From the NCBI RefSeq assembly GCF_013167455.1, contig NZ_CP038328.1: a DNA stretch of 64,000 nucleotides; one strand, written 5' to 3'. Made by a program: the position numbers. Below are positions 39,501 to 42,500 of this stretch, in pieces (position 1 is the first letter of the stretch; each line of letters begins with the position of its first letter). The DNA comes from Escherichia coli O157:H7 (lineage in GTDB: Bacteria; Pseudomonadota; Gammaproteobacteria; Enterobacterales; Enterobacteriaceae).

Positions 39501-42500
39501 CTTGCGGTCACGAGCTTCCTGATTCAGCTCTTCGCGCGTTTTGCGACGCGCTTTTGCATGACCTTTGCTGCGTGATGGTGAAGATGGTTTCATAATGGTT
39601 CGTCTTTTAGCCGTTTTATTCAGTATAGATTTGCGGCGGAATCTAACAGAAAGCAAGCAAAGAAAAAAGGCGACAGATTACTCTGTCGCCTTTTTTCCTG
39701 ACTCATAACCCTTAACGGGTCTTACAATCCTTGCAGGCCGCCAACACACCCTGTTTTTCCATTAGCCGGAACAATCCGTGTTGATTCCATTTCCGTTTAA
39801 TTACGTCTCCGGACGTTTGTCTTCCTGACAATCCTCTGTCTTCGCCTCCTGGCGCTCCTGACCCTCATCCTGAGTCATTGTTCCTGTTAGCGTCCTCGCT
39901 CTATGGGTGCTACTTTACGCCTTTGCTTTAAACAAACAATCAACCGCCATCAGTATTTGCACATTTTCAGAGTTTTATATAAAAGCAATTAACTGATTTA
40001 TATAGCTTATTTGACATGCATCGCAGAATTTTCTCTGCTATTTCGCATAAAGACTATCGGCAATGTCTCACAAAGCGTATGGCTTTTACTTACAACGCTC
40101 ACGCCGAAAAATCCGCCTTTTATTATGGTTCAGGTATAATCGCCGCAAAGCTTTGACTGACGGAGACGACCGCTTTGACTAATTTGAATTATCAACAGAC
40201 GCATTTTGTGATGAGTGCGCCTGATATTCGCCACCTACCTTCCGATACCGGAATTGAAGTGGCTTTTGCAGGCCGTTCCAACGCAGGTAAATCCAGCGCG
40301 CTGAACACGCTGACTAACCAGAAAAGCCTGGCTCGTACCTCAAAAACCCCTGGACGCACCCAGCTTATCAACCTGTTTGAAGTGGCTGACGGCAAGCGTC
40401 TGGTTGACTTGCCTGGGTACGGTTATGCGGAAGTCCCGGAAGAGATGAAGCGCAAATGGCAGCGCGCGCTCGGCGAGTACCTCGAAAAACGTCAGAGCCT
40501 ACAAGGTCTGGTAGTGCTAATGGATATTCGCCATCCGCTGAAAGATTTGGATCAGCAGATGATTGAGTGGGCGGTAGACAGCAATATCGCCGTGCTGGTA
40601 CTGCTGACCAAAGCGGACAAACTGGCAAGCGGCGCACGTAAAGCGCAATTGAATATGGTGCGTGAAGCGGTGCTGGCGTTTAACGGTGATGTGCAGGTTG
40701 AAACGTTTTCTTCGCTGAAGAAACAAGGCGTGGACAAGCTGCGGCAGAAACTGGATACCTGGTTTAACGAGATGCAGCCTGTAGAAGAAACGCAGGACGG
40801 CGAATAATTTTCTTACCTTAATGCTTATGCCGGATGTGGCGTATCCGGCCCATAAATTCAATAGATTACAATTCTACCGTTGGCCTGATAAACATGGTGC
40901 ATCAGGCATTACGGATCTTTCCTTTCGCCCAATAAAAAACGCCCCAGTCATTACTGACTGGGGCGGCTAAAATATTCAGCCAAATCCGATTACGTGAAGT
41001 AAAAGGTCTGAAAGATAGAACATCTTACCTCTGTACCCTACGCGACTAACTTTACTCTTTTTTGTTCAGTTCAGAAAGCACTTTTTGTAATTTTTTTTCA
41101 GTTGTTGCATAGGAATTTCTAATAGCCATCACAAAACGTGACAGCTTATGTTGCTTACTTACGAAAAAAGGGCATGTTCAGGCGAATCTTAGTGCGCCTG
41201 ATCCCAGTTTTCGCCACTCCCCACTTCCACCAGCAACGGCACATCCAGACGGGTACAGTTTTCCATCAGTTGATGAATCTGCTTCGCAACGGCATCGACA
41301 TCATCTCTATGAACTTCAAATACCAGTTCATCGTGTACCTGCATGATCATACGTACACGCGGTTGCTCAGCCTGTAACCACGCATCAACGGCAATCATCG
41401 CCCGTTTGATAATGTCGGCGGCGGTTCCCTGCATTGGCGCGTTAATGGCTGCACGTTCAGCCGCTGCACGACGAGCACCATTGCTGGATTTGATATCCGG
41501 CAGATACAGACGGCGTCCGTCCAGCGTTTCAACGTAGCCCTGCTCTTTCGCCTGAGCACGGGTGCGTTCCATATACTCCAGCACGCCAGGGTAGCGTTCG
41601 AAGTAAAGGTCCATGTACTTCTGCGCTTCTTTACGTGGAATGTTCAATTGCCGCGCCAGACCGAAAGCACTCATGCCATAAATCAGACCAAAGTTGATCG
41701 CTTTCGCGCTACGGCGTTGCTCGCTGGTGACGGTTTCCAGTGGCAAACCAAACACTTCTGCCGCCGTTGCCCGGTGGATATCTTTTCCTTCCGCGAATGC
41801 GGTCAGCAAGCCTTTGTCACGCGAGAGATGCGCCATAATGCGCAGTTCAATCTGCGAGTAGTCCGCTGAGACAATCACATAATCCTCTGGCGCAATAAAC
41901 GCCTGGCGGATACGACGACCTTCTTCGTTACGCACCGGAATGTTTTGCAGGTTAGGATCGGTTGACGATAAACGTCCCGTTGCAGTTACAGCCTGGTGAT
42001 AAGAGGTATGCACACGCCCGGTTTTCGGGTTGATCATCAGCGGCAGCTTGTCGGTGTAAGTCGATTTCAGCTTCGCCAGACCACGATACTCCAGAATCAC
42101 TTTTGGCAACGGATAGTCCAGCGCCAGTTCTTCCAGTACCTCTTCCGACGTTGACGGCGCGCCACCCGGCGTTTTCTTCAGCGGTTTAATGCCCTGTTTT
42201 TCAAACAGAATGGTTTGTAACTGCTTGGTGGAAGAAAGGTTAAATTCCTCACCTGCAATTTCATGCGCTTTCTTTTCCAGCTCAGCCAGACGAAGGGTGA
42301 GCTCTTCAGAATGATTGTGCAGCACTTTCGGATCGATCTTCACACCGTTACGTTCAATGCGTGAAAGTACTGGCACCAGCGGCATTTCGATATTCTCGAA
42401 GACGTTCAACGGCCCTTTGTGTTTTTGCAGATCCGGCCACATTTTCAGATGCAACTGCAAGGTGACATCAGCATCTTCGGCGGCGTAACGTCCGGCCTCT

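Follow-up and report, generated by a model that had tools for sequence, protein, structure and literature searches.

The question

The interval between yihI and yihA (engB) in Escherichia coli O157:H7 is left empty by a conventional search for open reading frames, and it may be asked whether it carries an independent RNA gene, the leader of a neighbouring gene, the remains of a protein gene or nothing but compositional noise. The interval lies within the 64,000-nucleotide stretch of contig NZ_CP038328.1 (assembly GCF_013167455.1) that was analysed here as a whole and is referred to as the window. A sequence-only reading of this DNA had placed the CsrC sRNA there, on the minus strand. The analysis described below indicates, with a probability of roughly 98%, that positions 39659..39904 on the minus strand are the gene of CsrC, one of the two CsrA-sequestering sRNAs of E. 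coli.

Identity of the RNA gene

The whole 64-kb window was scanned with Rfam 15 at gathering thresholds, and the CsrC family (RF00084) was matched at 39651..39904 on the minus strand over the full length of the model (positions 1-255 of 255), with 277.9 bits against a gathering score of 61 and an E-value of 1.2e-87. When the models of clan CL00106 were set in competition, CsrC stayed the best model for this RNA. The curated record of K-12 MG1655 (NC_000913.3) lists in the yihA/yihI interval an ncRNA of 246 nt, csrC (b4457, 'small regulatory RNA CsrC'), and alignment to that record showed 245/246 identity with both ends aligned. Taken together, the RF00084 match and the identity to b4457 define the csrC gene as 39659..39904 (minus strand), 246 nt by the K-12 annotation, with the 5′ end AUAGAGCG at 39904 as given by Rfam and by the K-12 alignment. 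In the RNA sense, i.e., on the minus strand, it starts AUAGAGCGAGGACGC and finishes GGCGACAGAGUAAUCUGUCGCCUUUUUUCUUU; the Rfam match extends 8 nt past the K-12 end, into the U-rich tail, to 39651.

The proposal that CsrC is encoded on the minus strand between yihI and engB was therefore borne out by the full-length RF00084 match, the 245/246 identity to K-12 and the synteny described below. The sequence-only reading had named an Rfam scan as its check and the lack of a CsrC match as its refutation; the scan was run and RF00084 was found, so that the refutation failed. The coordinates it gave, 39660..39905, point to the right locus, with each end one base off. The csrC gene at yihA/yihI is canonical and already described, and nothing about its placement is new.

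The locus is nearly universal in the species. A 401-nt csrC segment was found at no less than 99% identity in 5416 of 5426 complete E. coli genomes, with a median of one copy; it is 100% identical to an O157:H7 genome, and 2/401 nt of this wider locus are different in K-12, BW25113 and BL21. Two of about 5490 matches of the csrC locus in complete E. coli genomes fell on records labelled plasmid, for which mis-assigned replicons or plasmid-borne chromosomal segments are possible.

Genomic context and the relation to yihI

Both neighbours were assigned from the ORF list and annotated genomes: downstream, on the same strand, yihI (39087..39593, minus), which encodes a Der GTPase-activating protein, and upstream, divergently, yihA (engB; 40175..40807, plus), which encodes a ribosome-biogenesis GTPase and is separated from the start of the RNA by 270 nt. 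Divergent yihA followed by csrC and then by yihI on the csrC strand was described as the diagnostic csrC context (Kulkarni et al., 2006, PMC1488887), and exactly this order and orientation is found in the window. The yihI of the window is the 507-nt allele as in O157:H7, the K-12 allele being 510 nt long. The mechanical ORF list takes yihI further up, to a TTG at 39656 (39594..39656, minus), so that it overlaps the tail of the CsrC terminator; this start is an artefact of the ORF listing.

Orthologous loci were collected by one exact-pattern scan with a conserved 34-nt motif in a collection of species-representative genomes, which returned 40 loci in Citrobacter, Enterobacter, Salmonella, other Escherichia species, Lelliottia, Leclercia, Pseudocitrobacter, Superficieibacter and Huaxiibacter. 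The start of yihI lies 304-320 nt after the RNA start in 40/40 of them, and in all loci with enough flanking sequence yihA is divergent and 257-282 nt upstream.

So close an association raises the possibility that the GGA-rich RNA is mainly the 5′ leader of yihI, made by read-through, and not an independent sRNA. The yihI gene is on the same strand, its ATG (39593) lies just 65 nt past the 3′ end of CsrC, and the arrangement is kept in 40/40 orthologous loci. However, a very stable and fully conserved terminator (99% of cells paired) stands between the RNA and yihI, and the curated K-12 annotation stops the RNA at the U-tract, which makes the leader reading highly improbable; some read-through of the terminator into yihI may nevertheless occur. 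An independent CsrC transcript is the reading followed here.

Coding or non-coding

Automated annotation presents this locus in a different way. In PGAP-annotated RefSeq E. coli records, among them one assembly of K-12 MG1655 and one of O157:H7, no ncRNA is listed and a pseudo-CDS is placed inside csrC, at the equivalent of 39712..39878 (minus), with the description 'hypothetical protein; frameshifted; internal stop'. The label 'hypothetical protein' likewise stood under 20/20 among the matches listed in two genome searches, in which more than 5400 genomes were matched. Taken at face value, this would mean a decayed protein gene, frameshifted and with an internal stop, in place of an RNA gene. 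Such a gene must, however, be stitched together from a 25-aa and a 39-aa ORF in different frames, and the curated K-12 record gives ncRNA csrC, with the RNA model accounting for the whole length.

Nor does the locus evolve as a coding sequence. Across the orthologues the variability by codon phase is flat (0.131/0.121/0.131), with no third-position excess in the 41 sequences, and no indel preserves the frame: measured against the window, the 72 insertions and deletions in these sequences each span 1 or 2 nt. Only 6/41 sequences retain the start codon (ATG) of the 25-aa ORF. The decayed-gene reading is thus exceedingly improbable, and the pseudo-CDS over csrC looks like a systematic annotation artefact. 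Whether the same 25-aa ORF (39801..39878, minus) might encode a peptide within CsrC, as Spot 42 does with SpfP, was also considered, and the idea was rejected on the same count of AUG codons.

Inside csrC the minus strand has no ORF that reaches 40 aa, only mechanical ORFs of 22-39 aa, in agreement with the expectation of the sequence-only reading that this RNA would be invisible to an ORF track. On the plus strand a 47-aa ORF covers the CsrC terminator. All these observations fit a non-coding CsrC gene.

RNA structure and terminator

The Rfam consensus structure was threaded onto the window CsrC, and 59/59 of its pairs are canonical. The folding energy is -90.4 kcal/mol as compared to -63.5 ± 4.6 for shuffled sequences (z = -5.8). 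In the minimum free energy (MFE) fold of the single sequence, bases of the 5′ end pair with the 3′ region, so that GGA-10 and GGA-111 become buried; this long-range 5′/3′ pairing is absent from the Rfam consensus, and the MFE fold was therefore set aside as a basis for the assignment of loops.

According to the Rfam structure, eight hairpins precede the terminator, all on the minus strand. Hairpin 1 (RNA 5-16; 39889..39900) presents AGGA in a 4-nt loop, hairpin 2 (RNA 28-46; 39859..39877), which is also formed in the MFE and centroid folds, has AGGAUGA in its loop, and hairpin 3 (RNA 51-62; 39843..39854) reads CGCC-AGGA-GGCG and is invariant in orthologues, although this conservation is uninformative because the hairpin lies within the orthologue search pattern. 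Hairpin 4 (RNA 65-78; 39827..39840) carries GAGGAU in the loop and hairpin 5 (RNA 89-102; 39803..39816) carries CGGA. The long, interrupted hairpin 6 (RNA 122-163; 39742..39783) has two GGA motifs in or next to its stems. The loop of hairpin 7 (RNA 171-181) contains AAGGAUU and hairpin 8 (RNA 185-197) is devoid of GGA; the two occupy 39708..39734.

The RNA ends, as had been proposed from its sequence, in a strong intrinsic terminator, which was located at 39699..39660 (minus) by the terminator scan and by the MFE and centroid folds. It consists of a long stem with an A-tract and a G+C part, a GUAA loop and a U-tract: the scan gave 18 pairs (7 of them G-C), a loop of 4 nt and then TGCTTGCTTT, and the core can be written GGCGACAGA-GUAA-UCUGUCGCC, followed by U6CUUU. 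Across the 41 sequences 99.1% of cells are paired in the terminator, and its G+C core and U-tract are invariant.

The alignment of these 41 sequences (the window and the 40 loci) has a mean column identity of 84%. When the Rfam structure is laid on it, 90.4% of positions are paired, versus 39-47% when the partners are slid by 1-3 columns. Compensatory changes were seen in three pairs, including an AU/GC exchange in hairpin 1 (21:20 sequences) and a UA/CG exchange in hairpin 5 (26:14), and this count of pairs with double changes in 41 sequences is not above that of shuffles. The covariation support for the CsrC structure, which agrees with the curated Rfam model, is modest, since the orthologues are closely related and the double changes do not exceed the shuffled count.

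GGA motifs

The feature that first pointed to CsrC was the density of GGA on the minus strand, visible as tcc on the plus strand. Within 39651..39904 there are 14 GGA motifs on the minus strand, 9 of which are AGGA, versus 2 on the plus strand. Counted in every 254-nt segment of the 64 kb, GGA averages 3.4 on the minus strand (sd 1.9) and 2.9 on the plus strand; the segments with 14 GGA, 55 in number, all lie at the csrC locus and are the highest on either strand, the best elsewhere reaching 12. The sequence-only description of this strand as packed with GGA is hence accurate, as these are the densest 254 nt in the 64 kb.

Could this richness be the chance composition of intergenic DNA that has no RNA function? 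Two controls show how far composition may go. Dinucleotide-preserving shuffles of the csrC region contain on average 8.7 GGA (sd 2.0) and reach a maximum of 15 (n = 2000); shuffling csrC itself is a conservative control, because its GG and GA content is retained. The second-highest density in the window, 12 GGA in 254 nt at 22515..22768 (plus), is found in coding sequence, within a 678-aa ORF (21819..23855, plus). GGA richness as a sufficient criterion was rejected on these grounds, and since a coding stretch also reaches 12, the GGA count alone is only moderately specific for Csr-type RNAs; the weight lies on the model match, the strand asymmetry and the conservation. It is by these that chance composition is contradicted: the covariance model is matched over its full length at the E-value given above, the motifs are distributed 14 to 2 between the strands, the individual GGA sites and hairpins are conserved across genera, and so is the synteny. 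We therefore give chance composition no credence as an account of this locus.

The conservation of the motifs in the CsrC orthologues can be followed site by site. Each orthologous locus contains 13-16 GGA, and 13 of the 14 GGA sites of the window are kept in at least 39/41 sequences. Four of the 13 were imposed by the search motif, which leaves nine independent observations; the remaining site, at the terminator foot, is present in 27/41.

In the threaded Rfam consensus, 6 GGA motifs fall in hairpin loops (RNA positions 10, 35, 56, 71, 95 and 175), 5 in single-stranded linkers (21, 47, 80, 111 and 117) and 3 in or beside stems (128, 145 and 207). The motifs are thus predicted to be mostly exposed, with 11/14 in loops or linkers, and not all loop-borne. 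The sequence-only reading had spoken of GGA in short stem-loop contexts and suggested a count in predicted loops; that count, once made, leaves its wording as a fair description, though strictly only 6/14 are loop-borne.

Upstream region

In a scan of 39000..41200 for the sigma-70 consensus no promoter of 9/12 or better was found. By eye, a weak candidate -10 element, TAAAGT, can be read at 39912..39917 (minus; -13 to -8), and the best -35 candidate, TTGTTT at 39934..39939 (minus), is poor, with a 16-bp spacer. In most orthologues GTAAAGT is found again immediately before the RNA. Weak -10 and -35 elements with no near-consensus sigma-70 promoter would suit an activator-dependent csrC promoter.

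A candidate site for such an activator is found farther upstream. An exact search for TGTAAG-N16-TGTGAGACATTGCCGATA gave a single occurrence in the window, at 40055..40094 (minus), that is at -190 to -151 from the RNA start; the inverted repeat TGTGAGACATTGCCGATA itself occupies 40055..40072 (minus; -168 to -151), and the TGTAAG half-site, 16 bp upstream of it, 40089..40094 (minus). By ChIP-exo and DNase I footprinting, Zere et al. (2015, PMC4682653) had assigned this sequence to the binding of UvrY-P at csrC of E. coli, as an inverted repeat of weak symmetry with a half-site upstream of it. The UvrY site about 160 bp upstream of csrC is therefore present as an exact sequence match to the published one, and binding to it is predicted. 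Among the orthologous loci, TGTGAGA stands at the equivalent upstream position in 28/38, and the half-site and repeat are complete in 23/38.

A polymorphism at RNA position 144

The csrC of the window departs from that of K-12 at a single base, RNA position 144 (window position 39761), where A is replaced by U; this is the last loop base of hairpin 6, and AAGGA thereby becomes AUGGA. The U144 allele of the window, searched in a 61-nt context, is carried by 2515/5422 complete E. coli genomes, including O157:H7, and A144U is therefore a common polymorphism. Across genera the base in front of this GGA is G in 21 sequences, A in 15, T in 4 and C in 1, and because it varies so freely, the comparison suggests that A144U is neutral. 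The substitution might instead slightly alter the number of CsrA dimers held per CsrC and in this way give O157:H7-type and K-12-type lineages different CsrA set-points, a proposal that we regard as very unlikely.

Mechanism and related systems

The function of CsrC in the window strain would be that of the characterised K-12 gene, from near-identity to which it is assigned. In the mechanism described in the literature, each exposed GGA, ideally an A(N)GGA in a loop, would offer a high-affinity site to one RNA-binding face of a CsrA dimer (PMC7652899). One CsrC would then titrate several CsrA dimers off lower-affinity mRNA leaders (PMC7652899), because its multiple exposed GGA sites would each bind one dimer face, and the control by CsrA of glycogen synthesis, biofilm formation (pgaA), motility (flhDC) and central carbon metabolism would be relieved. 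Transcription of csrC would be activated by BarA/UvrY, with positive feedback from CsrA through uvrY, and, unlike that of csrB, with no requirement for IHF (PMC7652899, PMC4682653). The turnover of CsrC would depend on CsrD together with RNase E and PNPase, and in the presence of a preferred sugar EIIA-Glc, in its unphosphorylated form, would trigger CsrD (PMC7652899). The sequence features needed for each of these steps, i.e., exposed GGA, UvrY site and terminator, are all present in the window, with the function itself taken from published work. The csrD, csrA and uvrY genes are located outside the 64-kb window.

The closest relative is the CsrC of K-12 (csrC, b4457; Weilbacher et al., 2003, as cited in PMC7652899), which is the same gene one substitution apart: its ends, hairpins, terminator, neighbours and UvrY site are all shared. 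CsrB of E. coli (CL00106, CsrB/RsmB family) resembles it as a decoy that presents many GGA motifs to CsrA, has a far-upstream inverted repeat for UvrY-P and decays through CsrD and RNase E (PMC4682653, PMC7652899), and the loss of either CsrB or CsrC is compensated by a rise in the other sRNA (PMC7652899; PMC4682653). CsrB differs in having 22 GGA (PMC7652899), the yqcC/syd locus, a need for IHF and the near-perfect inverted repeat TGTGAGAGATCTCTTACA (PMC1488887, PMC4682653), whereas CsrC of the window has 14 GGA, the yihA/yihI locus and the weaker repeat of the csrC type. RsmX, RsmY and RsmZ of Pseudomonas and CsrB1-3 of Vibrio are likewise decoys for RsmA/CsrA, rich in GGA loops and activated by GacA/VarA (PMC1488887), but they share with CsrC no homology detectable by simple sequence search, lie in other contexts and generally do not undergo CsrD-dependent decay where CsrD is absent (PMC1488887, PMC7652899).

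Other RNA features of the window

Close to csrC, between polA (41189..43975, minus) and yihA, lies spf, which encodes the Spot 42 sRNA (40933..41051, minus; RF00021, 122.8 bits against a gathering score of 80) and has a terminator of its own at 40965..40940. The K-12 record annotates inside spf the 15-aa dual-function peptide SpfP, and a ChIP-exo signal of UvrY/SirA was reported near spf as well (Zere et al., 2015, PMC4682653). Farther away, Rfam matches were obtained for the ES222 sRNA (32769..32876, minus; 133 bits), for STnc370 (30811..30879, minus; 55.6 bits, just over the gathering score of 54) and for the selenocysteine insertion element SECIS_3 (3017..3075, plus; 84.3 bits), which implies a selenoprotein gene, probably that of a formate dehydrogenase subunit. 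A complete rRNA operon, with 16S, two spacer tRNAs, 23S and 5S, extends over 50137..55239 (minus), and a match to StyR-44 (53259..53367) lies just upstream of its 23S rRNA.

Significance

As a part of the Csr global regulatory system CsrC is textbook knowledge, and its identification in this window adds no new biology. Its value is that of correct annotation: a conserved non-coding gene of 246 nt is recognised as such, and is mistaken neither for empty intergenic DNA nor for a broken protein gene.
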